In this document: piece after piece, positions 1,303 to 18,220 of the stretch | Layout of the letters: the number at the start of each line of letters is the position of its first letter | Position numbering within the stretch: the stretch's first letter is position 1 | IMG/VR virus record: IMGVR_UViG_3300032038_000006 | Source of the DNA: a virus | Taxonomy: Duplodnaviria; Heunggongvirae; Uroviricota; Caudoviricetes | DNA length: 64,000 bases | Strand: one strand, 5' to 3' | Made by a program: the position numbers and the translations under genes | The notes under the pieces: generated by a model | Seen by the model: only the letters and a program-made list of their open reading frames with translations | Databases searched by the model: none | What the model was told of the DNA's origin: nothing

Positions 1303-1516
1303 CGGACGTTTAACGCAGAGAGCGGCGAGGCGCCTTGTCGGTCCATGCCGCGAAGGGGCGATGAGGGGAGAACACTGTTAATAAAGTATGAATAAGTTAA
1401 ATCATTTAACTTGGCCCGGGTCGAACTTCGCCACTTCACAGTACTAAAGTCCTTCCGGTCCAAAATGGCCCGGGTCATGTTAGCGGAGACTAACTGGATA
1501 ATAAAAAAATGGACGT

Positions 1517-1921
1517 TTAGCACGTCCATTCTACGAGATAATCCGCTATGGGATAGTCTTTGTAATATTCGTTAATAAATTCGCCTATTGGGTCATCGTA
1601 AATTGTTTTACTTATTCCCACGAACTCCGCAAGATTGAAGTATTTGTTATCGCCATAAACCTCAATTGTAAAAAGGTCTAACCCAACGAAAAAACTATCA
1701 AGAAATTCGCTGTCAACTAACTTCTGTTTATCATTGAGATACTCGCGCAAATCATCGCCATTTACGTCTTTTCTGTCTTTGTTGTGGTATTCGGCAGTTT
1801 CACCGATTAGGTCTGATTTCTTGAAAGCGGAGAACTCCCACAACCTATCGTAAAACTCGCCCCATTTATCTGACGGAAGCCTGATACCTCTGATAATTGT
1901 TATAAAACTTGAATAACTCAT
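1517..1921 (-). CDS. Hypothetical protein, 134 aa
   Basis: ORF with ATGA overlap to upstream ORF; TAA stop inside terminator hairpin. Confidence 0.75.
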   Translation of the reverse strand: MSYSSFITIIRGIRLPSDKWGEFYDRLWEFSAFKKSDLIGETAEYHNKDRKDVNGDDLREYLNDKQKLVDSEFLDSFFVGLDLFTIEVYGDNKYFNLAEFVGISKTIYDDPIGEFINEYYKDYPIADYLVEWTC

Positions 1922-2082
1922 TCTTCCTCGTCTTCCTCATCGTCAATAATTTCCTCGCCGTCAGTGCACCAATATCCTTCTCTATCAGCAATTTCCATTG
2001 CTTTTTCCTGTGCTTCATCAAAATTGTCCGCTTCAATCTCGCCTTCCCATTCAAGTGATACTTTTACATAATACTGTGCCAT
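1918..2082 (-). CDS. Small acidic hypothetical protein, 54 aa (MAQYYVKVSLEWEG...DEEDEEE)
   Basis: Directly downstream of promoter and RBS; TGA overlaps ATG1921. Confidence 0.7.
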   Translation of the reverse strand: MAQYYVKVSLEWEGEIEADNFDEAQEKAMEIADREGYWCTDGEEIIDDEEDEEE

Positions 2083-2114
2083 ATTTAAGCACCCCTTTCC
2101 TTTACTGTAATTAT

Positions 2115-2143
2115 ATTATAGCATATTTGTGCTGCCCTGTCAA
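2115..2143 (-). promoter_or_regulatory. Representative cassette promoter (about 30 similar copies between 2.1 and 17.7 kb)
   Basis: Minus strand TTGACA(2143-2138)-N17-TATAAT(2120-2115), extended -10 TG, then conserved leader ATAATTACAGTAAAGGA / ATATATAGTAAAGGA. Same layout recurs upstream of nearly every small ORF/RNA. Confidence 0.9.
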
Positions 2144-2236
2144 TAGTTTTTTGTTAGTATATGCTAACGTCGGCCCGGGGCGCTTTCGCACCCTAAAGTG
2201 CGAAAGTCTTTTTATGATTTGTCGGTATCGTACATA

Positions 2237-2449
2237 TTAAGCCCCCTTTCTTATTACACAGTAAGATATTTCGAGTTTGCCGTCTGGAGTGGGATAGCCA
2301 AGGAAATCATAAAATTCCTTTTTAGCGGCGATTACAGCAGTATCGCTGTTCTTTGCCTTTACTCTGTAAATCTGAGATTTAGGTCTGCCGCCCTCGTCAA
2401 ATATGAATGTCAGTCTTACCTCATAGAGTTTAGTGAACATATAACTCAT
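2237..2449 (-). CDS. Hypothetical protein, 70 aa
   Basis: Promoter plus AAGGAG RBS place the start at ATG2449, not the longer track start. Confidence 0.7.
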   Translation of the reverse strand: MSYMFTKLYEVRLTFIFDEGGRPKSQIYRVKAKNSDTAVIAAKKEFYDFLGYPTPDGKLEISYCVIRKGA

Positions 2450-2700
2450 CTCCTTTACTATATATATTATACCATAGAATATTATAGTTGTCAACACTTT
2501 TTTGCTAGGAGACGCTAACACCCCGGTCAAAAATTTTTTTCAGTTAAAAGTTTTATATGGCGGGAGGTATTGAGTTTAAAGGCGGAAAGTTACTATTTCA
2601 ACCTCTCGTTAATCATCAAACGCATTATATTGAATCGCACTGGATTTTCAATAAACTCAATCAATTCGCCCCGAGCGGAGTTAGTTAAAAAATTTGTGGT

Positions 2701-2889
2701 CTACTCAAGGTAGACCACAAGGAACTCACCGTCATAGTCAAATGACTGAACGAAAAGCGCAGTACCAAGTATGCCGTAAAAGCGTATAGGTGCTACACGT
2801 ATTACCTCGCCAGTACGTGCGATAACTGCAACTATGGTGCAAGAGTAACCGCACATACGGAGATATGCAAGAAGCCATTGAAGCCGCAT
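2701..2889 (-). CDS. Hypothetical protein, 62 aa if TAG is stop here
   Basis: Promoter plus AAGGGG RBS; ends in TAG embedded in a 9-bp hairpin GTGGTCTAC/GTAGACCAC. Confidence 0.6.
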   Translation of the reverse strand: MRLQWLLAYLRMCGYSCTIVAVIARTGEVIRVAPIRFYGILGTALFVQSFDYDGEFLVVYLE

Positions 2890-3022
2890 TTCACGTTCCC
2901 CCTTTCTATTATTATTATAATATAGATGTGCCGCCCTGTCAATAGTTTTTTGTTAGCAAGGACTAACTCGGCCCGGGGCGGCATTAAATGTTTTAACTAA
3001 TTAGGGTAAAAGAAAAAGCGGA

Positions 3023-3412
3023 TTACTCCGCCTTTTCCTTTTCTGCCTTTTTCTTGGCTCTTGCCGCCTTGTCACGCTCTGCCTTTGCGGCGGCGTTTGC
3101 CTTTTCCTCTGCCTTTTTCTTGGCGTTGGCTTCGAGTGTTCTCTGCCATTCTTCGGCAACCTTGTAACCGTCAAAATAAGGCTTGTCGTTCTTGCCCCAT
3201 TTGTGTGCCTGTATGGACTTTGCTATTGGATAGGGGAACTCTAACCACATCATAGCACCGTCAAGGGGAGATTTGCCGATAGGAACGAGGAAACCCTTTT
3301 CATCAGGATAGCAAGCACCATACTGCTCATTAAGGAGCTGTTCAAGTACCTTTATACCCTCTGCCTTATTCGCCTTTTCAACGCTTGCTCTTGTAACTTT
3401 AGTCTCAGCCAT
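3023..3412 (-). CDS. Hypothetical protein, 129 aa, Lys/Ala-rich C-terminus
   Basis: Promoter, RBS, TAA, terminator. Confidence 0.8.
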   Translation of the reverse strand: MAETKVTRASVEKANKAEGIKVLEQLLNEQYGACYPDEKGFLVPIGKSPLDGAMMWLEFPYPIAKSIQAHKWGKNDKPYFDGYKVAEEWQRTLEANAKKKAEEKANAAAKAERDKAARAKKKAEKEKAE

Positions 3413-3578
3413 ACTTATGACCACCTTTCCTTTACTGTACTTATATTATACCATACCTTATGGCGAAAGTCAATATGGCAAAATGACGAAAGTAATCAAC
3501 CTCATCGCTATATTTTTGTGCAAATCGCTGGGCGTCCGGGCCGCACTTCACTACGTTAAAGCGAGAAAGGGCGGTCAC

Positions 3579-4028
3579 TTACGCAACCGCCTTTAATACT
3601 CCGAGTATATCCGTTACATCATAAGCACCAACGCCCCATTTTATGCGGTTTGGCTGTTCATCATCAAACAGAATACCGCTTGATATTTCGTGCTTTGGTG
3701 TGCCGTAAGGTACAATATACACATTGTTGAATTTTACTGACTTTAGGTGTTTTGCTAACCAATTTAACTTAGCAACCTTTACACGCTCGTTATATTCAGC
3801 AGTACCACTTTTTGAAGTCCAAGAGATTATGTTAATTATATAACCTTTTCTCTGTAAAGCGTTCAAACGTCTTGCAAGTGCTGACATATTAATAAGGGGC
3901 TTTGCTATGTCATAGGGGCGAGTATCACCGTTGATTAAGTCATTTAACCAGCCGTCCACTCCGTAGAGGTCTGCGATAGTTCCATCAAGGTCAAAATTTA
4001 TAATTTTGGGAAGATTTGCATTTGTCAT
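3579..4028 (-). CDS. HAD-superfamily hydrolase (5'-nucleotidase-like), 149 aa
   Basis: N-terminal FDLDGT (DxDxT) motif and C-terminal ILFDD motif. Confidence 0.8.
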   Translation of the reverse strand: MTNANLPKIINFDLDGTIADLYGVDGWLNDLINGDTRPYDIAKPLINMSALARRLNALQRKGYIINIISWTSKSGTAEYNERVKVAKLNWLAKHLKSVKFNNVYIVPYGTPKHEISSGILFDDEQPNRIKWGVGAYDVTDILGVLKAVA

Positions 4029-4123
4029 ATATACAACCGCCTTTCTTTATTTCCTTTACTATATATAGTATATCACATTCTATTACTATTGTCAAGTATT
4101 TTTAAAAAAATTTTTCATTTAAC

Positions 4124-4639
4124 TTAATCGCCCGGGTTAGCATATTCCCAATGCATACCATTACAATGAGTTGCAATACCTCTTACACATTCAGAAATAT
4201 GAGTATGAGGACATCCCGTTTGACGTTCTGCTTCTCTCATACTGTCATAAATGATTCCTGTCTCAATGCACTTTACTTTGTGCCCTCTTGACTAACTATA
4301 TTTTTTCGCTCGATTGCCATAGTTCAAATTTTCCTGATGAGTACACCACTATAAATTATCTAACCAATTATGCGTGATATCTTCATCAATATGATTTACA
4401 TCCATTGTTTCCATATTTTCAATAGGATTAAAAGTTTCCATAACCAATCTATGAATACGGAACATTTTAGATTTACCGTCTTTTGATAGTGTTACAAATA
4501 AATACCCATTACTTGAAACGCTATGTTTTAACAATCTATCCTATTTACATTTCGGACTACCAGCAAGTCTTTTCACATTTCCCTAATCACTGACTTGATA
4601 ATATCCTTCATATCCTTTAACGTCTTTCCAATTTTCCAT
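4124..4639 (-). CDS. NUMOD4-HNH homing endonuclease, 171 aa, TAG-recoded
   Basis: MENWKDVKGYEGLYQVSD*GNV (NUMOD4), IHRLV...VNHIDED...DNL*WCT (HNH), KVKCIETGIIYDSMREAERQTG (NUMOD1-like). 4 in-frame TAG; TAA at 4124-4126; GAGGTG RBS. Confidence 0.88.
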
Positions 4640-4822
4640 TTATATCACCTCTTTAAATTTGGCACTATTTGTACCTTCATTAATAAAGTAAATTTTTGTA
4701 CCATTTAATATAATAAATTAGGACCAATTTTAAAATGAAATGTTAGCACCACCTAACGGCGCCCGGGTCAGTTAGCAGACACTAACTTGACTGGAGAGAG
4801 AACCGCCCCGAAGGGCGGCACC

Positions 4823-5017
4823 TTATCTACAATAAACTATTTCTTTACGGTCGTGGAAAATTACAACGCTTGACGACTTAATATCACCAAGAGCAACCGC
4901 CTTTGCTGTTGTGATGTATTCACTCTCACGATTAGGGGAAATGCAAGGCGGCATTACCGTAACGGTATAATCGGGGAACTGCTCGGCGAAACGCTTGTTT
5001 ACTGTGTATATACTCAT
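4823..5017 (-). CDS. Hypothetical protein, 64 aa
   Basis: Promoter, RBS, ATG5017. Confidence 0.65.
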   Translation of the reverse strand: MSIYTVNKRFAEQFPDYTVTVMPPCISPNRESEYITTAKAVALGDIKSSSVVIFHDRKEIVYCR

Positions 5018-5119
5018 TTTCCTCAACTCCTTTACTATATATATTATATCATAGTCTACAAAAGATGTCAAGTTTTTTTTGTTAGGAGAAACTAACATCG
5101 CCCGGGCCGCTTCACCGCA

Positions 5120-5281
5120 TTAAAGCGATGAAGGGTCAATATTTAACTGATTTAATATATCTTCTTGATATATAGTATAAACTTTATTTAATACGTCTGG
5201 CGGGCAACAGTAAAGAGCATACAAGAAATATAAAAGAGTTTCGGCATCTGGAAGTCCTATACATACTTTTCGTTCATTCAT
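5120..5281 (-). CDS. Hypothetical protein, 53 aa
   Basis: AAAGGGGG RBS; stop lies in the junction hairpin. Confidence 0.45.
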   Translation of the reverse strand: MNERKVCIGLPDAETLLYFLYALYCCPPDVLNKVYTIYQEDILNQLNIDPSSL

Positions 5282-5308
5282 TTAATTAATCCCCCTTTGG
5301 GGCGGCAT

Positions 5309-5974
5309 TTAAGCCGCCTTTGGTGTGTAATATGTTCTAACTATTTTCTTATGATAAGAGAACAGATATAGTAAAATTATTAACTCGCACCATACGTCCT
5401 CTAAAGCCGTATGCTTTTCGTTAAATAATTCATCGTGTGTAATATATCTGTAAAGAATTTCAGCGGTAAGCCTAACACGATTATTTTTTGTTAAATAGCC
5501 GTTATCCTCGCAGTATTTTCTATATGCTGGCGATTTGCCTAAAATCTGCTGAGCCATACGCAAAGTACACCATATTTCTATACCCCAAGGAATAACACGA
5601 CCATAACCGCCAACCGCCTTATTTGTGTTATTTAAAGCGTTATTGTCAAACCTTGCATTGTGGGCAATTACCGCACGAATAGGGTACTTTTTAAGAAGTT
5701 TACGGATAGTATAAAATGCTGTTCTCCAACGCACCATTTTACGAACGCCGTTTTTCAAATCTTCTTCATACTGAGGAAGTTTGTCTGCATAATAGGCGGT
5801 TTTCATTAGTTCTTTCATACCAACGTATACATCATAGATAACGAAATTATACGTTTCGTATATATTGCCCTGCCTGTCTACAACTGCCATACCTAAATCA
5901 TAAACGAACGGATTTTCTAAATCTCCGCACGTTTCAGTATCGAGTTGTAAGTAAAAATGTTTACGTCTACCCAT
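5309..5974 (-). CDS. DEDDh 3'-5' exonuclease (DnaQ-like), 221 aa
   Basis: ExoI LDTET, ExoII HNARFD, ExoIII HTALED motifs. Confidence 0.88.
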   Translation of the reverse strand: MGRRKHFYLQLDTETCGDLENPFVYDLGMAVVDRQGNIYETYNFVIYDVYVGMKELMKTAYYADKLPQYEEDLKNGVRKMVRWRTAFYTIRKLLKKYPIRAVIAHNARFDNNALNNTNKAVGGYGRVIPWGIEIWCTLRMAQQILGKSPAYRKYCEDNGYLTKNNRVRLTAEILYRYITHDELFNEKHTALEDVWCELIILLYLFSYHKKIVRTYYTPKAA

Positions 5975-6138
5975 TTGGTATCAAGTCCTTTCCTTTACTG
6001 TAATTATATTATACCACACTTTGCATATCTTGTCAACACTTTTTTGTTAGCATAGACTAACTCGGCCCGGGCCGCGGTTAAAAGATTTAACTAATTGGGG
6101 CAAAAGAAATGACCGCCGAAGCGGTCAAATCTTTTTAC

Positions 6139-6576
6139 TTAGTCGGCGATGTCCTCGCCGTCCTCGTCCTCGGCGATGTCCTCGCCGTCCTCGTCCTCGT
6201 CCTCGGCGGTTACAAGAGTGTAACCCTTTACAGTGCCCTTGCCCTTGACCTTTACGTCAGAAACAGTGATAGCACCGCTGTCGGCAAGCTGCTTTGCAAG
6301 AGCCGAAATCTTCTGTGTGGACACATTCAGAGCAGTTGCAAGGTCAGAAGCCTTCTTGGTTGTGCCGTCAGCAAGAGCCGCAAGGATAGCGGACTTGAAG
6401 CCGTCATTCTCAGCCTTGTGTGCAAGTGCGGACTTGGACACCTTACGCTGTGCGTTCTTCTTGTCAAGGGCAGTGATACGAGCCTTTGCGAAGTCTGTGA
6501 ACTCAGTGCCGAAATCGCCCTTTACGATTGCTGTAAGGAACTCACGCTCAGTCTTGAAAGTAACAGTAGTAGCCAT
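6139..6576 (-). CDS. Winged-helix HTH DNA-binding protein, paralogue 1, acidic tail
   Basis: ASDLATALNVSTQKISALAKQL HTH plus KGKGTVKGY wing; near-identical blocks in 7478..7885 and 9885..10277. Confidence 0.8.
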   Translation of the reverse strand: MATTVTFKTEREFLTAIVKGDFGTEFTDFAKARITALDKKNAQRKVSKSALAHKAENDGFKSAILAALADGTTKKASDLATALNVSTQKISALAKQLADSGAITVSDVKVKGKGTVKGYTLVTAEDEDEDGEDIAEDEDGEDIAD

Positions 6577-6720
6577 AGTATGCTCCATTTCTCCCACACT
6601 TAGGTAGTGGACACCATAGATTAGATTTTTCGGAGTGGAGTATCTCTCTCACTCTCTGTAATTATTATATCACATTTTCTGTGATTTGTCAAGGGGTTTT
6701 CAATTATTTTTATTTTTTAA

Positions 6721-6788
6721 CTGAAAGCCTGTTCGTCAACAGTGGGGAACAAGAGCCGTAGTTCTCGTTTCGTTCTCCCCTTGACTAC
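6721..6788 (-). ncRNA. Candidate small structured RNA, copy 1
   Basis: Own promoter, no ORF; hairpins CGAGA-ACTACGGC-TCTTG and CTGTT-GACG-AACAG; paralogue at 8193..8258. Confidence 0.55.
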
Positions 6789-6931
6789 ATTTATATTATA
6801 CCATATAATATGGTATTTGTCTACTGGCAAAATGCACAAACCTCATTAACAATATGATTAAGTTTTTGTGCAAATCGCCGGCGGCCCGGGCCGCTTCACT
6901 GCATTAAAGCAATGAAGCGATAGAGTTTATC

Positions 6932-7171
6932 TTAATCAATCCCCATTTCTTTTAATCTTTTAACTTGCTTTTCATTGTGGCGGTCAAAAATTCGATATGA
7001 AACAGAAAAACTACATCTATCGTCTGCTTCAATCACAAGGGCGGCATAACTATTATTTTCAATATATCCTTCATATCCCATATATCCAGTAAAAACGGCT
7101 ACATAACGTGGTTTAGAAAGGTTAGGATAAAAAGGTTTCAAGGGGTTTTTGTAAGTATTTTTACGTTTCAT
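6932..7171 (-). CDS. Hypothetical protein, 79 aa
   Basis: AAGGGGTGA RBS, ATG7171. Confidence 0.7.
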   Translation of the reverse strand: MKRKNTYKNPLKPFYPNLSKPRYVAVFTGYMGYEGYIENNSYAALVIEADDRCSFSVSYRIFDRHNEKQVKRLKEMGID

Positions 7172-7182
7172 TGAATCACCCC

Positions 7183-7320
7183 TTACGCATAAGCCTTGCA
7201 AGCAAGGTGGACGGACTGACGGAGTTTTTTCTTTGCAGTTCTCTTAAACTCCTTTTTGGTCATATAGTCGAGCACCCACTTGCCCATATCATTTCTCTTG
7301 TATGCATTGCTCTTAGTCAT
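7183..7320 (-). CDS. Small basic protein, 45 aa (MTKSNAYKRNDMGKW...LACKAYA), paralogue A
   Basis: Promoter plus AAGGAAAGGCGGTCATC leader; paralogue at 13507..13644; absent from the ORF track (<60 aa). Confidence 0.75.
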   Translation of the reverse strand: MTKSNAYKRNDMGKWVLDYMTKKEFKRTAKKKLRQSVHLACKAYA

Positions 7321-7477
7321 ATTGATGACCGCCTTTCCCTTAACTCTATATATATTATAGCATAAATGTGCCGCCTTGTCAATAGTTTTTTGTTAAGTAA
7401 TGCTAACGGCCCGGGCCGCGATTAAAAGATTCAACTAAATGGGGCAAAAGAAATGACCGCCGAAGCGGTCAAATCTT

Positions 7478-7885
7478 TTACTCTGCGGAAGTCTCCGCAG
7501 GAGCCTCAGCAGGAGCCTCAGCAGGGGCGGCGAGGGCGTAACCCTTCACCTTGCCCTTACCCTTGATAGATACATCAGTCGCAACGATGTCTCCAGACTC
7601 CACAAGCTGACGAGCCAGTGCAGAAATCTTCTGAGTAGACACGCCAACAGCGGCAGCGAGGTCGGAAGCGGTAGTGAACTTGTCGGCAACGAGAGCCGCA
7701 AGGATAGCGGACTTGAAGCCGTCATTCTCAGCCTTGTGTGCAAGTGCGGACTTGGACACCTTGCGGTCTGCATTCTTCTTGTCAAGGGCGGCGATTCTGC
7801 CCTTTGCGAACTCCACGAACTCAGGCTTGAACTCACCGTTTACGATTGCAGTAAGGAACTCACGCTCAGTCTTGAAAGTAGCCAT
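7478..7885 (-). CDS. Winged-helix HTH DNA-binding protein, paralogue 2, (APAE)n tail
   Basis: TFKTEREFL...KVSKSALAHKAENDGFKSAIL...STQKISALARQL. Confidence 0.8.
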   Translation of the reverse strand: MATFKTEREFLTAIVNGEFKPEFVEFAKGRIAALDKKNADRKVSKSALAHKAENDGFKSAILAALVADKFTTASDLAAAVGVSTQKISALARQLVESGDIVATDVSIKGKGKVKGYALAAPAEAPAEAPAETSAE

Positions 7886-8041
7886 AGTATTCTCCATTTC
7901 TCCAACACTCAGGTAGTTGGCAACGCTTAGATTAGATTTATCAGTAGGGGTCTTTCCCTTACCTTCTGTAATTATTATACCACATTTTTTGTGGCTTGTC
8001 AAGTAGTTTTGAGAAAATTTTTCTTTTTAACTAATTGACGT

Positions 8042-8115
8042 TGGTGCGCCTACGGGGATTTGAACCCCGACTGATTGATTAAAAGTCAACTGTGCTACCC
8101 TTACACCACAGGCGC
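8042..8115 (-). tRNA. tRNA-Lys(TTT)
   Basis: Acceptor GCGCCTG/TAGGCGC, anticodon arm GTTGA-CTTTTAA-TCAAT, T-loop GTTCAAATC, encoded CCA, own promoter. Confidence 0.92.
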
Positions 8116-8258: not shown

Positions 8259-8404
8259 TATATATTATACCATATAATATGGTATTTGTCTACTGGCAAA
8301 ATGCACAAACCTTATTAACATTCTCGACCTCTTTTTGTGCAAATCGCCGGCGACCCGGGCACCAGTTAAAACTTTTAACTTTATATGACGGAAAAGGGCG
8401 GCGA

Positions 8405-9032: not shown

Positions 9033-9184
9033 AAGAGCACCGCCTTTCTTAATTTCTATATATATTATAGCATATATTTTTAGAGTTGTCAACCCTTTTT
9101 TGTTAGGGGAGACTAACTCGGCCCGGGTCAGTTAGCACTGACTAACACTTAACAACAAGAAAGGGGCATAAGCCCCTTTTGTTA

Positions 9185-9679: not shown

Positions 9680-9884
9680 ATTACCAATCCTTTCACTTTA
9701 GAACTCATGTCCTTTACTGTAATTATATTATACCACGTTTAATAGTATTTGTCAACTACTTTTTGTTAGTACAATCTAACCGCGGCCCGGGCCGCCCGTT
9801 AAAAGATTTAACTAATTAGGGTATGCGGTCGGCGTGGACTATTGCCCACGCCTCGACTTAGTTATTTGTTTTTACTGAGGGCGA

Positions 9885-10277
9885 TTACTCGCCCTCTCCC
9901 TCTCCCTCAGTTGTAGGGAGAGCGTAACCCTTTACCTTGCCTTTGTTAGGAATTTTAACCTCAGAAGCAACTATCTGCTTGCTGTCAACAAGCTGTTTAG
10001 CAAGTGCGGAAATCTTCTGAGTAGATACGCCGAGTTTGTCAGCGAGTGTTGCGGCGACCCACACCTTGCCGTCAGCGAGTGCGGCGAGAATTGCGTTCTT
10101 GAAGTCCTCGTTCTCTGCCTTATGAGCGAGAGCAGACTTAGAAACTTTTCTCTGCTCGTTCTTTTTGTCGAGAGCGGCAATTTTGCCCTTTGCGAACTCT
10201 GTGATAGCGTCTGAAACCTCTGCCTTGATAACAGCGTTAAGGAACTCTCTCTCAGTCTTGAATGTTACGTTTGCCAT
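9885..10277 (-). CDS. Winged-helix HTH DNA-binding protein, paralogue 3
   Basis: TFKTEREFL...KVSKSALAHKAENEDFK...STQKISALAKQL...KGKVKGY. Confidence 0.8.
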   Translation of the reverse strand: MANVTFKTEREFLNAVIKAEVSDAITEFAKGKIAALDKKNEQRKVSKSALAHKAENEDFKNAILAALADGKVWVAATLADKLGVSTQKISALAKQLVDSKQIVASEVKIPNKGKVKGYALPTTEGEGEGE

Positions 10278-10422
10278 AGTTTACCTCTTTCTCTCATACT
10301 TAGGTAGTGAGCACCTTAGTCGTGGTGTTGACCTTTCCTTTACTATATATATTATATCATAGTTTAGGAAGTTTGTCAAGACCTTTTTTAATATTTTTTT
10401 GTTTTAACCAATTGCTTGGTTA

Positions 10423-10496: not shown

Positions 10497-10579
10497 TTGA
10501 CTACATTTATATTATATCATACTCGGAGCGATTTGTCAACCCCTTTCGATATAATTTTTTTATTTAACTTTGAGTTAAG

Positions 10580-10654
10580 TGGTGGAGGGGCGAGCGGTTT
10601 CTCACCGCCCCTACATCACGGTTATGAGCCGAGTGTCCTTAACTGAACCCCTCC
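10580..10654 (-). ncRNA. Degenerate tRNA(CAT)-like RNA
   Basis: Perfect 7-bp acceptor GGAGGGG/CCCCTCC plus ACCA, CTCATAA anticodon loop, but non-canonical T-loop (TGAGAAA) and weak D-arm; own promoter. Confidence 0.6.
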
Positions 10655-10808
10655 CTTAACTCTATATATATTATACCACATCAACACCGATTTGTCTACT
10701 GGCAAAATGCACAATGTTCATCAACAATACTGTTATGTTTTTGTGCAAATCGCCGGCGGCCCGGGCCAGTTAGCCTTAACTAATATTCAGATATTAAAAA
10801 GGGCAATC

Positions 10809-11281: not shown

Positions 11282-11403
11282 TGTATCAACTCCTTTACTA
11301 TATATATTATACCACGATACAATATAAATGTCAACCCTTTTTTTGTTAGTACGTCCTAACTCGCCCCGGGCCGCTTCACCGCATTAAAGCGGCGAAGCAT
11401 TTA

Positions 11404-11757: not shown

Positions 11758-11766
11758 TTCCTTTCG

Positions 11767-11982: not shown

Positions 11983-12116
11983 TTACCTCATCTCCTTTAC
12001 TATATATATTATATCACATAATAAAGGAAATGTCAACTACTTTTTGTTAGGGGCGACTAACTTCGCCCGGGCCGCAGTTAAAATATTTAATTAAATACCA
12101 AAAAAGAGGGCGGCGA

Positions 12117-12257: not shown

Positions 12258-12289
12258 TGTTCTGCCCTTTTTAGTTTTAAATTTTACGC

Positions 12290-12439
12290 TCATTCAGTAC
12301 CCCTCATTTCTTCTTTTCTTCTCTTGTATTCGTTTGGACTTTTGCCCTTGCGTGTTACTGGATTGATATTCCAAGTATTACGTTTTGACTTGTAATACTC
12401 TTTTTGCTTTTTCTTTGACTGTTTAGCAAGTGGTATCAC
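12290..12439 (-). CDS. Small basic protein, 49 aa (MIPLAKQSKKKQKEYYKSKRNTWNINPVTRK...)
   Basis: GTG start with GAGGGAG RBS, overlapping the upstream stop. Confidence 0.65.
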   Translation of the reverse strand: MIPLAKQSKKKQKEYYKSKRNTWNINPVTRKGKSPNEYKRRKEEMRGTE

Positions 12440-12639
12440 GAAAAATCATCTCCCTCTCTCAATTTCTCTTTGAAACGCTTTTTGAACTCGACTAAGTTTG
12501 CGATTTCCTTTATGTCCTTAAAGTAAATCTTTTTGTCATTAGCGAAGTAGATTACATTGTTTTCGATACGCTGTACACAGAAATCACCATTTCCGTTTTT
12601 GAGAATTTCCAGTATTTCAATTATATCTGAGAGCCACAT
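12436..12639 (-). CDS. Hypothetical protein, 67 aa
   Basis: Promoter plus AAGGAG RBS put the start at ATG12639. Confidence 0.7.
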   Translation of the reverse strand: MWLSDIIEILEILKNGNGDFCVQRIENNVIYFANDKKIYFKDIKEIANLVEFKKRFKEKLREGDDFS

Positions 12640-12713
12640 AAACTCAACTCCTTTACTATATATATTATACCATATCGGATAATAAATGTCAAGGGGTTTG
12701 AGAAAGTTTTTTA

Positions 12714-12863
12714 TTAAACTTTCTCTATCCAGTAGTGACGTGCAACAACGCTGTTCATATTCCCATAGATAAAAGCGTTCATATAGTCGCAAGCCTCAAA
12801 GTAGTCGTTAAAAGTCTTAACAACCTCACATTTGCCGTTTACGTCAGTTATGATATTAAACAT
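12714..12863 (-). CDS. Hypothetical protein, 49 aa
   Basis: Promoter, AAGGAG RBS, TAA. Confidence 0.65.
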   Translation of the reverse strand: MFNIITDVNGKCEVVKTFNDYFEACDYMNAFIYGNMNSVVARHYWIEKV

Positions 12864-12964
12864 ATAATCAACTCCTTTACTATATATATTATATCACGTT
12901 TCAATAATAAAGTCAATAGGAGTTGTTAGTATCTACAAACTCGCGCCCGGGCCGCTTCGCCACT

Positions 12965-13261
12965 TTAACGTGACGAAGTCATTTTGATTTTATATTTTGC
13001 TCTGTATTGTCTTATCTTTTTACTTTCTGGAGTGTTTGAAATATGTGGGCGAGTTTTAAGTATATCGTGTATTGTCATTATATTTAACTGTCGATTTGCT
13101 CGACAATGCTGATAATTTGGGCAGTTTGGCTCTGCATAGATATATTCACCACATTCAAAGTGAAAATCTAATCGCCGCATTTCTCTGATTAACTGTAATG
13201 TCGGCATTTTTTCATATACTTTCCTGTCAATGATTTCGTTAAAACACCAAACTTTTTTCAT
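12965..13261 (-). CDS. Hypothetical protein, 98 aa
   Basis: ORF abutting the upstream gene. Confidence 0.7.
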   Translation of the reverse strand: MKKVWCFNEIIDRKVYEKMPTLQLIREMRRLDFHFECGEYIYAEPNCPNYQHCRANRQLNIMTIHDILKTRPHISNTPESKKIRQYRAKYKIKMTSSR

Positions 13262-13492
13262 TTAGTCATTTCCTTTCTCAATATAAAAATAGTGCATATC
13301 TTCATCTGCCAGTATTTCTTCATACCTATGATTTATATGCGTATTGCGGAAGATACGCCAACAACGCCACAGCGGACGAGCCCACAGGTGCTTGAAGTCA
13401 AAACCGTCACGATACAGGACACAGAAGTTTTTAATTGACTTATGATTTATCCAGTTGTAGATAGCCATATAAGGTTTATAACGAATATTCAT
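13262..13492 (-). CDS. Hypothetical protein, 76 aa
   Basis: AAAGGAG RBS, ATG13492. Confidence 0.7.
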   Translation of the reverse strand: MNIRYKPYMAIYNWINHKSIKNFCVLYRDGFDFKHLWARPLWRCWRIFRNTHINHRYEEILADEDMHYFYIEKGND

Positions 13493-13506
13493 AAACTCAG
13501 CTCCTT

Positions 13507-13644
13507 TCAAGCGTAGCTCTTGCAGGACAGACGAGCCTGCTGACGAGCTTTTCTGCGTGCCTTACGAATGAGGGCAGACTTGCCGAGGAAGTCGCCTGCG
13601 TACTTGCCGAATGTATTCTTCTTGTAAGCGTTACCCTTAGTCAT
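13507..13644 (-). CDS. Small basic protein, 45 aa (MTKGNAYKKNTFGKY...LSCKSYA), paralogue B
   Basis: Same length, leader and terminal motifs as 7183..7320. Confidence 0.75.
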   Translation of the reverse strand: MTKGNAYKKNTFGKYAGDFLGKSALIRKARRKARQQARLSCKSYA

Positions 13645-13761
13645 ACCGATGACCGCCTTTCCTTTACCTTATGTATATATTATACCACTTGCGGCGGCAT
13701 TTGTCAACCCCTTTTTGTTAGCACGTGCTAACTCGCCCCGGGCCAGTTAGTATTGACTAAC

Positions 13762-14003
13762 AAGGGGATATGAAAATAAGGGTGCATAGTTTTTGCGGGG
13801 CTGTTCCTATCACTCACAAAGGGGTGACCCTATACACTCTTATCCAAGTACATCACAACAGACTAACAGCTGATTCTGCTCTTGACGGAGGGTATGTGTC
13901 TCCGACACAATTACGGATTTTAGTTGGCGAATGTGCTTATTCCAACGACCAGTAAGGTTAGACCTGACCTTAATAAGGAGATTGCCTTGTTCCCTTACCT
14001 TCT
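13762..14003 (-). ncRNA. Candidate ~240-nt multi-hairpin non-coding RNA
   Basis: Consensus promoter (-10 at 14010-14015), no credible minus-strand ORF; stems TAAGGT/ACCTTA, GTTGG/CCAAC, TGTGTC/GACACA, GAGTGTATAG/CTATGCACCC. Confidence 0.6.
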
Positions 14004-14269
14004 ATATATATTATACCATAGTGTAACAGAAATGTCAACACCTTTTTGTTAGCACATACTAACGCGCGCCCGGTCCACTTCCACACTTTATTGTGCTAAA
14101 GTGCTCTCGGGTCAAGTGACCCGGGATGCGTTAGTATGTACTAACAACCTAATGGGAGAAAAGGCGATTAGGAAATCGCCGTTAAAAATATTACAAAATC
14201 CTCTACCCACATTGGACAGAGTGGATGGTTAATAATTTTAATAATTAAATCTTTCATCTCAATCTCTCC

Positions 14270-14431
14270 TTATTCGATTTGCTCAAATTGTTGAACCTTT
14301 TGACATTTCCAACACCGCATTGTTTTAACGTGTCCGATTTTGGTGCGGCGGCTCGATTTTTTGGGAGCAGTCGAAACCGCTCCACATTCTGGACATTTGA
14401 ACCACCTCATTGTTATACTTTGCTTTTTCAT
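14270..14431 (-). CDS. Zinc-ribbon protein resembling ribosomal protein bL33, 53 aa
   Basis: FKCPECG...TAPKKSSRR...KTMRCWKCQKVQQFEQ; CxxC-X26-CxxC in a basic 53-aa protein. Confidence 0.6.
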   Translation of the reverse strand: MKKQSITMRWFKCPECGAVSTAPKKSSRRTKIGHVKTMRCWKCQKVQQFEQIE

Positions 14432-14447
14432 TTAATCAAATCCTTTC

Positions 14448-14600
14448 CTATTTAATTACATAAACTTTTGCATTTGGTGTAAATGCTATTAACTCACCAT
14501 TGGAAGAAACGGCGAAGTTTTCGTCAACTTTTTTAAAAATATGCCAAGAGTTGAACTGTGAAAACCAAGTGCCTATTTTGATATTGCCGAAAAAATCCAT
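14448..14600 (-). CDS. Hypothetical protein, 50 aa (ends in TAG; TGA 4 codons later)
   Basis: Fills the gap between two genes; TAG directly precedes the RBS of the next gene. Confidence 0.5.
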   Translation of the reverse strand: MDFFGNIKIGTWFSQFNSWHIFKKVDENFAVSSNGELIAFTPNAKVYVIK

Positions 14601-14616
14601 TGTATCACAACCTTTG

Positions 14617-14775
14617 TTAAAACATTAAGCGGAAGAAATTCCACTTTGCAAAGTCTCCATAATTCGGATTGCAAATATCATTATGTATGTTCACATCAAT
14701 AAAACTTGCAATCATATAAACGGCGAACAGGACACTAATGAGGAGCAGGACATTTGACCATTTTATCCTTTTCAT
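14617..14775 (-). CDS. Small membrane protein, 52 aa
   Basis: One hydrophobic helix; promoter upstream. Confidence 0.65.
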   Translation of the reverse strand: MKRIKWSNVLLLISVLFAVYMIASFIDVNIHNDICNPNYGDFAKWNFFRLMF

Positions 14776-14894
14776 ACAGGTCACAACCTTTCTTTTCTTT
14801 TGTTCTATAAATATTATATCATATTGTAGCTTAAAAGTCAAGCTTTTTATAGATATTTTCTTCTTTTAACTAAATCCCCGGAGGGGAGCAGGGC

Positions 14895-15356
14895 TCATAC
14901 GCCCTGCTTTATCAGTGTGCTCTCTGTGCAAATTGTAGCTTTCTCGAACTTGATTGAGTAAGCTGTTCCGTCCTCTGTTGTGAGGTCAGCTCCCTTGAAG
15001 AATGGAACGTTGTCCTTTTCCCATTCCTGACCAGCTCTCTCGGTGATGATTCTCTCGAAGTCCTCACCTTTGTTGTAGCTTGAACAAGCGTGGAAACCGT
15101 CAAACCATTCCTTTGAGCAAATCAGCTCAGCCTGTCCGCTCTCAACAAGAGCTTCTTTCTCAGCTTTTGTGGGCTGATATCTCAGGCAATAGCCACCGCC
15201 GTTTTTGGAGCTTGCACGGTCGAGCTTAATTCCGAAGCTCAGACCAATGGTCTTAGCTGCATAGATATTGCCCTTGTAGGCAAAACCCATAACATAGTTG
15301 TGAGTAAAAGCGATTGAGTTGTAACGTGCGATAAGATTGATTAACATAGCGTTCAT
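14895..15356 (-). CDS. Hypothetical protein, possible PD-(D/E)XK fold, 153 aa; paralogue of 18674..19549
   Basis: YNKGEDFE...DNVPFFKGADLTTEDGTAYSIKFEKATIC. Confidence 0.7.
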   Translation of the reverse strand: MNAMLINLIARYNSIAFTHNYVMGFAYKGNIYAAKTIGLSFGIKLDRASSKNGGGYCLRYQPTKAEKEALVESGQAELICSKEWFDGFHACSSYNKGEDFERIITERAGQEWEKDNVPFFKGADLTTEDGTAYSIKFEKATICTESTLIKQGV

Positions 15357-15931
15357 TAAGAACACCGTCCTTTCCTTAACTTCTATATATATTATACCAT
15401 ATAAAACCGGAGTTGTCAACCCCTTTTCAAAAAAAAATTTGAAAAGTTGTTAGCATATGCTAACACGTCTCGGGTCGATTCTCGATTTGTTAGTATAGAC
15501 TAACACGTGGTCGCACTCCCCTCTTACTCTCTGCCTTCCGGATTTTCTATATATATTATACCATACAAATATTGATTTGTCAATACCTTTTTAAAAAGTT
15601 TTTTATTTAACTGTTAGCATAGACTAACACGTTCTACACTTTGATACTTTAACTCGCTAAAGCGGCGGCACGGTCCATCGCATCTACCCTTTAAACTTCT
15701 ACACTTTAAACCGCTAAAGCGCCCGGTCCATAATGGACCGACCGTGTTAGTATATACTAACACATGGTTTCACTCCCCCATTATATTATATCATATCCAG
15801 TCGAATTTGTCAACACCCTTTTGTTAGTATATACTAACAAGTGCTACTAACTTTTTTTTAAAATACTATTGACATTTCCGGTATGATATGATATAATATA
15901 ATTACAGTAAAGGAAAGGACGGTTGAACCGT

Positions 15932-16225
15932 ATGAAAAAGAATAGAATTGATTGGGCAGACGTTGGAATGATTATCGCTGAAATACTTTTCGCACTCTTT
16001 ATGGTTGCTTTAATGATTGGAATAGTTTTAATCGCTAAGCACTCCGCAGACCACACAAGACTTGAAAATGGTGTTGCAATCTCTGCACACGTTCTTGAAA
16101 CTCCTGACGGTAATCAGTGGGAAGTGAGAGACACTCTCGCAATCGGTCACGAATATGAAGTATATTTAAACGATAATGATACACCTGATAATGTGTTAGA
16201 TGATTATATCACTTGTGTTAAATGA
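15932..16225 (+). CDS. Membrane-anchored hypothetical protein, 97 aa
   Basis: First gene of the right (+) arm; promoter at ~15868-15897; N-terminal TM segment. Confidence 0.75.
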   Translation: MKKNRIDWADVGMIIAEILFALFMVALMIGIVLIAKHSADHTRLENGVAISAHVLETPDGNQWEVRDTLAIGHEYEVYLNDNDTPDNVLDDYITCVK

Positions 16226-16298
16226 AAAAATTTTCAAAAACCTATTGACAAACTGAATAGAATGTAGTATAATAAGTATAGTAAAGGAGTTGTTTTAA

Positions 16299-16502
16299 AT
16301 GTTAGTTAAAGTTCTCGTTATCATTTATTCACTGGTGTTTATCTTTGGTGTATGCGTTCCGGTTGTTATCGGCAGAAAAGCATACAATAAAGGTAACTAT
16401 GGTTTAAAGAATACTTGCGTTGAAATTGCAGAAGTTTTCTTTAAAATATTTTACAAAAGCCTGATTGCTATTCTCATTGCATTTATTATCTATATCGTTT
16501 GA
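16299..16502 (+). CDS. Small two-TM membrane protein, 67 aa
   Basis: Promoter plus AAGGAG RBS; ends TGA TAG TAG TAA. Confidence 0.75.
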   Translation: MLVKVLVIIYSLVFIFGVCVPVVIGRKAYNKGNYGLKNTCVEIAEVFFKIFYKSLIAILIAFIIYIV

Positions 16503-16884
16503 TAGTAGTAAATAATTTAACTAAAGGGCGGCAACGCCCTTTTCTTTTATACTTTACACTTTAGAACTTTAAAGTGCTAAAGTGCTCGGGTCGATATTTT
16601 TTCTCGGGGCGGCACCACTATGACCCGTGTTAAATTTTTAACAAAGGCGGGTCTTTTAAGAGGGGCGACCCGAGACGTGTTAGCGGGTACTAACAAAAGC
16701 GGTAAGAAAATTTTAAAAAGGGTATTGACATTTTCGTTCCCGTGTGGTATAATATAATTACAGTAAAGGAAAGGAATGATACTGATGATGAAAACATTCG
16801 TTGATAGACTTATAAACAGATACGGTTTTGAACACTGGAGCGTTAAGTTTTTCGCACGCTTCGTAAAGTAAAGGAAGTGATTAA

Positions 16885-17085
16885 ATGAAACTCAATAGAA
16901 AATATATCCCCTCTGCACTCTGCACATATTACGACCACTGTGCAAAGTGGGAAAAGATTTACTGTGAGAAATACGCACATAATCCTGACAGATACAGAGA
17001 TGATTATTTCTTTTACAGAAAAGAGCGTTACGCTGCACATCGTAAAATGAATAAACTTTTCTGGAAGAACTTCGGCAAAATTTAA
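16885..17085 (+). CDS. Hypothetical basic protein, 66 aa
   Basis: AAGGAAGTG RBS. Confidence 0.7.
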   Translation: MKLNRKYIPSALCTYYDHCAKWEKIYCEKYAHNPDRYRDDYFFYRKERYAAHRKMNKLFWKNFGKI

Positions 17086-17280
17086 TAATTTAACTTAAGC
17101 GGTTGGGTAACGTTGGCAATAGTTGGCGTGAAGACCGCTTCACTTCTGCACTTCACACTTTAGAACTTTAAAGCGCTAAAGTGCGTCTCGGGTCGGGTCG
17201 TTAGTCTATACTAACAAAAAGGTGTTGACATTTACTGTGTGATGTGATATAATATAATTACAGTAAAGGAGTTGATTAGA

Positions 17281-17595
17281 ATGAAAGATATTAAATATTC
17301 ATCAATGAGAGCAAGATACAACCGTTATTGTAAAGTCGTTGACTTTTTCTCTTGGTATGGTGCAACGTGGTTGTTCGTTGCATTTCCTGCCGCAATCGGT
17401 GGCGGTATGTTTGAAGCGGGCATACACAATATTTTTTCAATCGGTTGTGTAGTATTAGCAATTTTAATGTTCATTTACACATTTATCGGCGGTTGCCTTA
17501 TCGGTGATAAAGTTTCTTTTGAAGAATTTGCTGAATGTAAGTCTTATGAAGATACAGAAAAAGCAATTCGCAAAAATCAGAAATGGTTAAGTTAA
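17281..17595 (+). CDS. Two-TM membrane protein, 104 aa
   Basis: Promoter plus AAGGAG RBS; two hydrophobic segments. Confidence 0.75.
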   Translation: MKDIKYSSMRARYNRYCKVVDFFSWYGATWLFVAFPAAIGGGMFEAGIHNIFSIGCVVLAILMFIYTFIGGCLIGDKVSFEEFAECKSYEDTEKAIRKNQKWLS

Positions 17596-17677
17596 ATAAA
17601 AAAAATATTAAAAATCTCTTGACAAACCGGAGAAAACGTGATATAATAATAATAGAAAAAGGAAAGGAAGTGTCAGT

Positions 17678-17878
17678 ATGAGAGACTACACTGAATTTGT
17701 AAGAATGGCAAAGGAAAGCAAAAACCTTGATGAACTGAAAGCAAAAGTCCTTGAAAGCGGTTCTGGTGCATACTTTAGCGAAAGCGGAGAACTGATGACT
17801 GGTGTAGAAGATTATTTCGGTTTTGTTACATTTTCTGCCGAAATGACCGAAAACGGTATCAAATGTACAATGTATTAA
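17678..17878 (+). CDS. Hypothetical protein, 66 aa
   Basis: Promoter, RBS, terminator TCGCCTGC/GCAGGCGA. Confidence 0.75.
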   Translation: MRDYTEFVRMAKESKNLDELKAKVLESGSGAYFSESGELMTGVEDYFGFVTFSAEMTENGIKCTMY

Positions 17879-18220
17879 CAAAGTCGCCTGCGAGGAGCAG
17901 GCGATTTTTTTATTTTTTTAACTTTAACGCTTTAAAGCGCTAAAGCGCGGCCCGGGTCGAGCTCAGCTCAAACGTAGCTCAAACGCGCATTTTAAAAAAG
18001 GCGAATTTTTCATTTTTTGAAAAATTGCCTTTTTCTTAGACTTTCCTTGGTCGATTTTTGGGATTTTTCCGATTTGTTCAATCTTTTACTAAAATCCTGT
18101 TTTTGCCCGATTTTTCGGCTTTTCTACTCTCTTATTATACCATTTTTTGCCCGATTTTTCAAGGAAAAACGTATATTTTAAAATGTTTTAACAACGCTAT
18201 TGTTAGTAATAGCTAACGCT

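Follow-up and report, generated by a model that had tools for sequence, protein, structure and literature searches.

The early region of this phage consists of small transcription units parted by a recurrent pair of palindromic motifs, and the question is what these motifs do. A first-pass annotation had proposed an integron-like system of gene cassettes; we followed this up for the complete window (the whole stretch of DNA that was analysed, 64 kb long) and for its relatives. The source genome is best explained as that of a lytic siphophage of roughly 180 kb with hosts in gut or rumen Clostridia, and TAG is a sense codon in it.

Layout of the array and its junctions

The units form one contiguous array of 16 kb within 1.4-18.2 kb of the window, the early region, with genes on the minus strand at 1.5-15.8 kb and on the plus strand at 15.9-17.9 kb. 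Promoters that match TTGACA-17-TATAAT perfectly (12/12) occur 28 times in 1-19 kb, and 27 of these lie at 2.1-17.7 kb, in agreement with the promoter-bearing units that had been annotated. Each of these ~27 sigma-A promoters drives a tRNA, a small RNA or between one and four tiny genes that contain no TAG. The duplicated and empty units described earlier were also recovered: three wHTH paralogues, two 45-aa paralogues and repeated small-RNA units on the one hand, and the promoter-less terminal junctions (1396-1494 and 17920-17956) on the other. A phage sigma factor gene follows the early block (20059-21243), and an I-HmuI-type HNH homing endonuclease gene (4127..4639, minus strand), which is intact only with TAG read as Gln, is bounded on one side by a core at 4131-4136, which its last codons overlap, and on the other by the box-core-box at 4742-4786.

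The array region is best explained as an early module of the 'host-takeover' type. Modules of the host-takeover or pre-early kind, in which strong host promoters form arrays, include the terminal-redundancy module of SPO1 and the pre-early region of T5, and the likeness consists of a compact set of many small early genes with near-consensus host promoters and strong Shine-Dalgarno sequences that are read before the phage sigma-dependent genes. We know of no description of a conserved box and core between the units of SPO1 or T5.

The repeated element itself is real. The box, a 16-bp palindrome (GTTAG-N6-CTAAC), has 24 exact copies in the 64-kb window against 0.04 expected, all at 1479-18217, and four further copies with one arm mismatch. 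The GC-rich core, with consensus (c)GGCCCGGGCC(g), is present as CCCGGG in 20 copies against 2.05 expected, all at 1415-17956, next to about ten degenerate cores (CTCGGGTC, CCCGGTC, GACCCGAG); GTTAA-N5-TTAAC has seven copies in the window against 0.24 expected. Box and core are strictly intergenic. The annotated box pairs around a core (4742/4771, 9102/9131, 13717/13746), GTTAA boxes (6077, 9798) and hairpins (~5110, 6894, 11373, 12956) were found as described. The junctions are the following:

1396..1494, minus: promoter-less terminal junction, end of leftward arm; GTTAA box 1396-1410, core 1415-1420, hairpin-like stretch, core 1469-1474, box 1479-1494
1506-1532: terminator of the last leftward gene
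2115..2207, minus: cassette; promoter 2115-2143, box 2153-2168, core 2174-2179, hairpin 2182-2207
2466..2528, minus: cassette; promoter 2466-2494, degenerate box GCTAG..CTAAC 2504-2519, degenerate core CCCCGGTC 2521-2528
2914..2997, minus: cassette; promoter 2914-2942, box 2952-2967, core 2972-2977, GTTAA-like box 2983-2997
3445..3575, minus: second cassette type; TTGACT promoter 3445-3473, TTTGCACAAAAA 3513-3524, degenerate core 3534-3542, hairpin
4742..4786, no strand: box-core-box; 4742-4757, 4762-4767, 4771-4786
5043..5133, minus: cassette; promoter 5043-5071, box 5081-5096, core 5101-5106, hairpin ~5110-5133
6008..6091, minus: cassette; promoter 6008-6036, box 6046-6061, core 6066-6071, GTTAA box 6077-6091
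6795..6917, minus: second cassette type, small-RNA cargo; TAGACA promoter 6795-6823, TTTGCACAAAAA 6863-6874, core 6885-6890, hairpin ~6894
7354..7435, minus: cassette; promoter 7354-7382, degenerate box 7392-7407, core 7410-7415, GTTAA-like box
8264..8379, minus: second cassette type; TAGACA promoter 8264-8292, TTTGCACAAAAA 8332-8343, core 8354-8359, GTTAA box 8365-8379
9064..9146, minus: cassette with box-core-box; promoter 9064-9092, box 9102-9117, core 9122-9127, box 9131-9146
9727..9812, minus: cassette; promoter 9727-9755, box 9765-9780, core 9786-9791, GTTAA box 9798-9812
10670..10784, minus: second cassette type; TAGACA promoter 10670-10698, TTTGCACAAAAA 10738-10749, core 10760-10765, degenerate box 10769-10784
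11306..11398, minus: cassette; promoter 11306-11334, box 11345-11360, core 11365-11370, hairpin ~11373 (-20 kcal/mol, z = -3.8)
12008..12091, minus: cassette; promoter 12008-12036, box 12046-12061, core 12066-12071, GTTAA-like box 12077-12091
12888..12979, minus: cassette; promoter 12888-12916, degenerate box 12925-12940, core 12946-12951, hairpin ~12956
13679..13761, minus: cassette with box-core-box; promoter 13679-13707, box 13717-13732, core 13737-13742, box 13746-13761
14010..14145, minus: cassette with compound junction; promoter 14010-14038, box 14048-14063, CCCGGTC 14069-14075, hairpin, CTCGGGTC 14106-14113, core 14120-14125, box 14130-14145
15391..15897, no strand: divergent control region between the arms; five boxes (15449, 15489, 15613, 15746, 15823), degenerate cores 15469 and 15722, three tandem leftward promoters (-35 at 15419, 15583, 15813) and one rightward (15869)
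16555..16753, plus: rightward-arm junction; hairpins, CTCGGGTC 16585-16592, GACCCGAG 16667-16674, box 16679-16694, promoter 16725-16753
17140..17253, plus: rightward-arm junction; hairpins, CTCGGGTCGGGTC from 17187, box 17200-17215, promoter 17225-17253
17920..17956, plus: promoter-less terminal junction of the rightward arm; hairpin, then core 17951-17956

Read along transcription, given the strands of the two arms, a junction opens with a 3' hairpin, a terminator or a second box and continues with core, box, A-tract and -35. The junction element forms the upstream end of a repeated promoter cassette of ~95 bp (GC core, box, A-tract, -35/-10, conserved leader, Shine-Dalgarno), and the repeat unit within the genome runs from the leader up to 2-6 nt beyond the core. 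The gap between box end and -35 is 9 nt in 11 of 12 cases; otherwise the spacing is loose (box-core 2-8 nt, core-promoter 20-80 nt, box on either side of the core), which speaks against one rigid complex. Box and core are both missing from about 15 consensus promoters of the window, and three junctions (1396-1494, 4742-4786 and 17920-17956) have no sigma-A promoter after them, so the element is more than a simple promoter operator.

The element-bearing phages form a large family, uncultured and from gut and rumen: in IMG/VR at least 120 stretches contain the composite of core and box, with as many as nine copies per locus, and in bacterial genomes it was found only as singletons. Mapping the motif over whole genomes, as had been proposed, placed all boxes of six large relatives (G003, G006-G010) within one early region of 13-18 kb, and 26 of the 28 CCCGGG copies of G003 lie inside its box-bearing region. 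Box and core are specific to one phage lineage and confined to the early region. The divergent control region of relatives carries core-less box arrays (24 boxes in 1.6 kb in G008), in the same place as the five boxes of the window, two of which are downstream of predicted start sites.

The entire cassette is repeated within the window at 72-85% identity, and common descent therefore accounts for part of the similarity. That box and core are nothing but functionless relics, spread by duplication of the promoter cassette, is nevertheless very improbable, as arms and core are near-invariant where the N6 centre, spacers and flanks are randomised, the same arms are kept across many divergent phages (those at least 120 stretches) whose promoter contexts and orders differ, and the element is limited to one genome region.

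Conservation of sequence, not structure

The conservation of box and core is that of DNA sequence and not of structure. Among the degenerate boxes beside a core 93 of 94 break the complementarity of the arms (the sole compensated copy being a GTTAA..TTAAC box), and the box-core-box folded as RNA is no better than shuffled sequence (z = -1.1). It is hardly credible, in view of both observations and of the placement of the element between terminators and promoters, that the box-core-box works as a structured RNA such as a processing site or stabiliser, even if the 5-bp arms might form small hairpins and read-through could transcribe the element. The CTTC..GAAG stem-loops, which had been annotated as protein-binding palindromes, behave differently: they covary, and where a pair departs from Watson-Crick, the sense strand has G.T (four of four cases). 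They are probably a separate part and RNA rather than protein-binding palindromes, and would represent the 3' hairpins of the upstream transcripts.

These hairpins end 1-3 nt ahead of the core without a U-run on the sense strand, which lends some weight to an insulator or roadblock terminator, where protein on core and box would block upstream read-through and serve termination instead of promoter control. In line with this, every core invariably follows a 3' hairpin, a terminator or a gene end, the 3' hairpin of the upstream unit often has no U-tract, the terminator-less 'GTTAAAA..' junctions (e.g. promoters 6692, 8002, 8164, 8797, 10379, 10539) carry no core, no promoter follows the terminal copies, and the distance from core to next promoter is variable in relatives. 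We consider it unlikely all the same: the repeat unit in the window ties the core more consistently to the promoter side than to the 3' side, a canonical intrinsic terminator is already present at many junctions, and the core-less box arrays of relatives do not fit a terminator role.

Unit exchange and breakpoints

Comparison with related genomes supports a cassette array in which relatives differ by units gained, lost, duplicated and replaced. A relative with 96% identity (L044) differs by whole-unit swaps and one tandem duplication joined at the core of the 13679-13761 cassette, where the junction identity is only ~8-10 bp (CCCGGGCC). The seven junctions of this comparison fall at the core (1), the -35 box (1), leader/RBS (3) and gene ends (2), and in three swaps the promoter with its own box and spacer sequences was retained and the downstream gene replaced. 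Across loci, the core accounts for 12 of the clean breakpoints (n = 119), the -35 box for 13 and leader/RBS-like sequence for 27; core, box, -35 or RBS patches together take 55 of them, and ~90% lie outside the core. The -35 box and the leader/RBS serve as junctions as frequently as the core does. Raw homology, on the other hand, ends 0-4 nt beyond the core in 34 of 433 cases, a very sharp peak that recurs in several lineages and marks the GC core as a sharp hot spot of homology breakpoints.

An unrecognised phage enzyme could cut or exchange strands at the core, with the palindromes as binding arms, and so mobilise promoter-gene cassettes. This pile-up speaks for it, as do two loci (L002, L046) that share one left block joined at the core to different right blocks, the short identity at the L044 duplication, the promoter-less elements at both array ends and the likeness of GTTAG/CTAAC to the GTTRRRY/RYYYAAC core sites of integrons (a resemblance only). 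We regard it as quite unlikely, because the share of clean breakpoints elsewhere, -35 box and leader included, is so large, box/core spacing and order vary, promoter, box and spacers stayed in place in the three L044 swaps, and homing-endonuclease homologues of relatives showed no linkage to cores. To our knowledge, recombinase core sites have a fixed geometry. Moreover, six-frame searches reading through stops recovered no tyrosine recombinase (PF00589; the control matched in 14 of 14 genomes) in the five element-bearing relatives that are at least 90% complete, and the same kind of search found no serine recombinase, resolvase or invertase (PF00239) in these five relatives.

Integron attC sites have the arrangement R''-L''..L'-R', measure 57-141 bp and act as a folded strand with conserved extrahelical bases, and integron cassettes are promoter-less, in one orientation and expressed from a common Pc promoter. 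The array shares with them small gene cassettes that are gained and lost and are parted by imperfect palindromes with GTTAG/CTAAC-like motifs. We rejected an integron identity (no IntI-type tyrosine recombinase in the five relatives) and an attC architecture (box-core-box of 45 bp without conserved bulged bases, box-core spacing of 2-8 nt, a fold equal to shuffled sequence, uncompensated arm variants); the cassettes lie on both strands in two divergent arms, each with its own consensus promoter in place of one Pc. A serine-recombinase or invertase-type site was rejected likewise, PF00239 being missing from the five relatives. Of the integron-like proposal the cassette array, its turnover and the core hot spot stand, whereas a dedicated site-specific system is unsupported because of the missing recombinase, the variable geometry, the few core junctions, the units' own promoters and the covarying hairpin.

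The parallel drawn earlier with T4-type phages holds by analogy. Their promoter-early stem-loop (PeSL) cassettes combine a terminator/stem-loop with early host-type promoter motifs that flank small variable early genes, and show insertions, deletions and replacements in close relatives, with junctions inside the repeated motif, which were attributed to homologous recombination (Arbiol et al. 2010, PMC2839356; Comeau et al. 2014, PMC4122927). Here, too, a composite of host-type early promoter and stem-loop/terminator is repeated between small variable ORFs, and indels and replacements have their junctions in the repeated motif (seven of seven against L044 at core, -35, leader/RBS or gene ends). 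In contrast to the PeSL cassettes as described there, this Firmicutes-type siphophage with TAG recoding, not a T4-type myovirus, has two extra conserved DNA motifs (the GC-rich palindromic core and the 16-bp palindromic box) and one contiguous 16-kb array instead of scattered hyperplastic regions. The relation is analogy and not homology, since the structural genes are siphovirus-like (2535-aa tape measure, Dit) and the closest phages are Phass-1 and large Bacillus and Enterococcus siphophages. Phass-1 (OQ749652), the nearest in GenBank with a portal ~30% identical, is with the 'code 15' phages another gut siphophage with TAG recoding, and its small early ORFs likewise stand in a block (Babkin et al. 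2023, PMC10607447); the element is absent there, with CCCGGG scattered at control level and one box, and that paper makes no mention of promoters, repeats or palindromes.

Candidate binders and the likeliest role

What is found is a many-copy, sequence-specific, non-structural DNA motif at or near promoters, as in an operator regulon. Dispersed operator regulons, in which one regulator reads all sites, include the 'stoperators' of cluster A mycobacteriophages, the C1 operators of P1 and the KorB OB sites of RK2 (TTTAGCSGCTAAA), and they resemble the array in having tens of short sequence-specific sites over many transcription units at variable promoter distance. The KorB half-site TTAGC resembles many boxes (GTTAGC..GCTAAC), but no ParB/KorB-like protein was found here; stoperators are asymmetric and oriented, unlike the palindromic box, and the GC core adjoining the box has no counterpart in the stoperator, P1 C1 or KorB systems. 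Within the early region, a multi-copy family of winged-helix proteins (6139-6576, 7478-7885, 9885-10277) is the sole DNA-binding family that can be recognised, and it is present in four of the six box-bearing relatives and missing from two; searches for HTH_3, HTH_17 and ParB found none.

We therefore favour, at slightly better than even confidence, box and core as operator- or insulator-like docking sites for dimeric protein(s) that double as short-homology recombination seams. The breakpoint peak at the core is sharper than a homology patch of 8-12 bp might give, which counts against this explanation. At least one dimeric DNA-binding protein, probably phage-encoded, would dock at box and core, and the bound protein(s) would act jointly on all early transcription units. 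Shut-off or repression would be the likeliest action, as promoters that already match the consensus need no activator; alternatively, the protein(s) would insulate neighbouring units. Core, -35 box and leader provide short stretches of identity at seams that are selectively neutral, so that homologous or microhomology recombination from seam to seam may duplicate, delete and exchange whole units in the way described for PeSL cassettes, and no dedicated recombinase would be needed for the shuffling of the early region in this phage family.

Architecture of the early-region junctions

The box-core repeat reported in the first-pass annotation was recovered by counting: the 64-kb window holds 24 copies of the box, the palindrome GTTAG-N6-CTAAC (range 1479-18217; 0.04 expected from shuffles), 20 copies of the core CCCGGG (range 1415-17956; 2.05 expected) and seven copies of GTTAA-N5-TTAAC (0.24 expected). 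Four further boxes appear when one arm mismatch is tolerated, and the remaining junctions carry about ten degenerate cores (CTCGGGTC, CCCGGTC, GACCCGAG). We consider it very improbable that the element is a functionless relic. A consensus scan of the first 19 kb yielded 28 promoters of the form TTGACA-17-TATAAT that are perfect at 12 of 12 positions, most of them with a TG extension; tRNA-Lys and tRNA-Asn each have their own promoter upstream, and these two tRNAs were the sole matches in an Rfam scan of 1-20 kb. Avoidance of CCCGGG outside the early region was considered and dropped: the window has no copy in its other 46 kb and the relative G003 has two in 168 kb, neither count being clearly below expectation.

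The elements of the geometry described earlier were all found, but its orientation had to be corrected: the genes at 1.5-15.8 kb lie on the minus strand and those at 15.9-17.9 kb on the plus strand. In the sense of transcription, a junction begins where the upstream unit ends, at an intrinsic terminator, a GC-rich hairpin or a second palindrome. Next come the core, the box and an A-tract, followed by the -35 and -10 boxes and by a stereotyped leader that carries a strong Shine-Dalgarno sequence. A role of the element in termination, as a roadblock or insulator at this unit boundary, appears unlikely to us. Within the window, the gap between box and -35 is exactly 9 nt in 11 of 12 cases. Self-comparison of the window revealed a repeat unit of ~95 bp (72-85% identity), comprising leader, promoter, A-tract and box, that terminates 2-6 nt past the core in about ten alignments; in other alignments the repeat extends by another 25-40 nt and takes in part of the hairpin or second box. 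Because the repeat unit stops just past the core, the core is the distal edge of the promoter cassette.

The geometry is loose outside the window. In the relatives, box and core are 2-8 nt apart and the next -35 lies 20-80 nt from the core. The box falls within the core-promoter interval in 104 contexts, beyond the core in 108 and on both sides in 22; the exact box is missing in 59% of core-promoter contexts. Other palindromes can stand in for the box beside the core, its further partners in the window being GTTAA-N5-TTAAC and TTTGCACAAAAA..TTGTGCA.

A second promoter class, with TAGACA or TTGACT as -35, was also observed; three of its four copies drive small RNAs. The -35 is preceded by an inverted repeat, TTTGCACAAAAA-N24-TTGTGCATTTTGCC, which may be a second type of operator. 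The copies are:
3445-3524, minus strand, second-class promoter
6795-6874, minus strand, second-class promoter
8264-8343, minus strand, second-class promoter
10670-10749, minus strand, second-class promoter

Distribution of the element and identity of the phage

At least 120 IMG/VR contig stretches contain the composite CCCGGG-N2-9-GTTAG-N6-CTAAC; among the matches listed, the contigs are mostly 80-186 kb long, with up to nine copies at some loci. Bacterial and archaeal genomes gave single matches only, mostly in high-GC actinomycetes and a few on short contigs of Clostridia MAGs, which we read as binned phage DNA. A host regulon was ruled out, since no clustered copies were present in 596 Gb of bacterial genomes. 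A genome-wide map of six large relatives, of which five are at least 90% complete and the sixth is 63% complete, placed all boxes within one region of 13-18 kb per genome, and in G003 this region includes 26 of the 28 CCCGGG copies. The nearest GenBank phage, Phass-1 (portal ~30% identical, followed by large Bacillus and Enterococcus siphophages), lacks the element in its genome, and the paper describing it (PMC10607447) mentions neither promoters, repeats nor palindromes; megablast of the region against GenBank phages gave no match, and the element itself was not found in the literature searched. The element is a trait of a phage family.

From 20 kb on, long ORFs appear only with TAG as a sense codon, and the genes encode: a sigma factor, the portal, five tail-tube-like paralogues, a 2535-aa tape measure protein, Dit and tail proteins. 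These genes, together with the TAG reading, identify the source as a large TAG-recoded siphophage, in which 1.4-18 kb is the early region, in the standard code. About 11 plus-strand copies of (G)CAGCTCAC lie just left of this region (1130-1310) and three AGCTCA copies, oriented alike, directly adjoin the last core on its right (17957-17985); these direct repeats bracket the 16.5-kb early block and could delimit a long terminal repeat or represent some other landmark of the genome. A TAGACA promoter precedes a small RNA unit (10566-10652, minus strand; start GGGAGGGG, end ..CCCCUCCACCA) that resembles a tRNA-like molecule, its extra arm being long and its loop reading CUCAUAA; it was called by neither ARAGORN nor Rfam, and a 96%-identical copy is found at a different position in L044, the locus of the closest relative, G001. 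A 153-aa early protein (14895-15356, minus strand), present at 42-50% identity in most relatives, shares a domain of ~60 aa with a 322-aa protein encoded after the early region (18581-19549, plus strand); neither matched a Pfam or PHROG family.

Cassette rearrangements and their breakpoints

L044 is 96% identical to the window over the shared blocks and differs from it at seven junctions. In its reverse complement (1-1264) a 643-bp three-gene unit is duplicated in tandem; the join is a CCCGGG core, at CCCGGGCC, with only ~8-10 bp of identity, and the promoter of the second copy is fused to a different upstream region within AAAGGGGTTGACAAAT, inside the -35 box. Three replacements (one small RNA, two genes) start directly after the conserved leader or RBS, leaving in place the promoter together with the box and spacer sequences that belong to it, and two of the seven junctions are at gene ends. 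Over all fetched loci, 34 of 433 raw alignment ends fall 0-4 nt past the core, in a very sharp peak.

Clean breakpoints in all fetched loci (n = 119; abrupt loss of similarity required, duplicates removed)
Core: 12
-35 box: 13
RBS-like patch or gene start: 27
Box: 3
Elsewhere, many at gene boundaries: 64

Together, the junction and breakpoint data show that cassette order is not conserved and that the core is a genuine seam. The proposed gain, loss and shuffling of cassettes was borne out to that extent, but with only 12 of the 119 clean breakpoints the core is one among several short conserved patches that serve as seams. Such a pattern is what short-homology recombination would leave behind once selection has retained the intact units, as has been proposed for the promoter-early stem-loop (PeSL) cassettes of T4-type phages (PMC2839356, PMC4122927).

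Nature of the element and candidate proteins

Arm changes in degenerate boxes beside a core break complementarity in 93 of 94 cases, the single compensated one being of the GTTAA..TTAAC type, and the RNA fold of box-core-box is no better than that of shuffled sequence (z = -1.1). These substitutions show that the box is read as DNA sequence, and an RNA element seems extremely improbable. The CTTC..TTAA..GAAG stem-loops are structures: their stems vary among copies with pairing retained, they fold at -20 kcal/mol (z = -3.8), and in four of four cases a non-Watson-Crick pair is G.T when read on the sense strand, a number that makes the strand evidence suggestive only. The best reading takes the stem-loops as 3' hairpins belonging to the upstream transcripts.

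Boxes also occur in arrays where the early arms diverge: five in the window (15.45-15.84 kb), of which two are located downstream of predicted start sites, and 24 without cores within 1.6 kb in the relative G008, adjoining two other palindrome families. The latter region (locus L122, 17300-19620) contains arrays of TTAGTTAGTCNTAACTAAC (24 copies), GAAAACGTTTTCG (several) and TTGTCAGACAA (many) enclosing one 99-aa ORF without known family; by its layout it looks like an origin or master control region. This ORF was rejected as a universal binder, since it belongs to no Pfam family and the window has no homologue of it.

The sequence-read box, the loose geometry, the interchangeable palindromes and the box arrays fit sequence-specific sites at which proteins would dock in a regulatory or architectural capacity, and are at odds with recombinase core sites, whose layout of arms plus spacer is fixed. 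The first-pass annotation had suggested a search for a tyrosine or serine recombinase; six-frame family searches, in which control genomes scored, detected neither family in the five relatives with a completeness of at least 90%. A dedicated system of some unrecognised family that recombines or nicks DNA is decidedly unlikely. Its more specific form, in which the GC core would be the crossover or nick site with the palindromes as arms and no recognisable integrase, and self-contained promoter-gene cassettes would move within and between members of a large family of recoded gut and rumen phages, we hold to be quite improbable; if true, it would amount to an integron counterpart in phages that relies on a new enzyme, and any dedicated enzyme acting at the core would imply a new kind of gene-cassette system. 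The integron-like analogy itself fails on every membership feature tested.

Various other proteins were considered. The core as target of a homing endonuclease was dropped, the homologues in relatives not adjoining cores; the gene in question is:
4127-4639, minus strand, HNH homing endonuclease of the I-HmuI type (NUMOD4, HNH_3 and NUMOD-like domains)
It sits inside one junction, its last codons overlapping half a box and the core, and is intact only when TAG is read as Gln (four in-frame TAG codons). It is a 'late-code' gene in an otherwise TAG-free early region and lies in an AT-rich insert that lacks a sigma-A promoter. A phage sigma promoter was considered because of GTTAG (SPO1 late -35 CGTTAGA) and rejected because the motif is palindromic and lacks a conserved -10 at a fixed distance. 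The TTAGC half-site prompted a ParB/KorB-like binder, which was ruled out as no such protein is present; family searches found neither ParB, HTH_3 nor HTH_17. The only recognisable DNA-binding proteins in the early region of the window are three paralogues (130-145 aa, acidic tails), each gene having its own promoter followed by a conserved untranslated leader of ~70-90 nt:
6139-6722, minus strand, weak MarR-like winged-helix protein
7478-8034, minus strand, weak MarR-like winged-helix protein
9885-10408, minus strand, weak MarR-like winged-helix protein
A profile of this family found 3-6 copies in four relatives and none in the box-bearing G007 and G009, so that it fails the phyletic test as box binder and is at best a lineage-specific candidate.

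On balance we lean towards core and box being predicted docking sites for proteins specific to the phage lineage, which would jointly control or insulate ~20-30 early units. In this reading the sites also serve as seams for recombination of the PeSL type. Since the promoters already match the consensus, the bound proteins would rather shut off the early transcription units. PeSLs, known from T4-like myoviruses of Gram-negative hosts, are likewise regulatory cassettes doubling as seams, whereas the present phages form an unrelated lineage. The element would mark every early transcription unit in a large family of 160-190 kb phages, none of them cultured, that infect gut and rumen Firmicutes. 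It provides a simple sequence signature for locating their early regions and points to a predicted regulator acting on ~20-30 promoters at once; it also extends to this lineage the idea that regulatory cassettes, as recombination seams, give rise to early-gene diversity.
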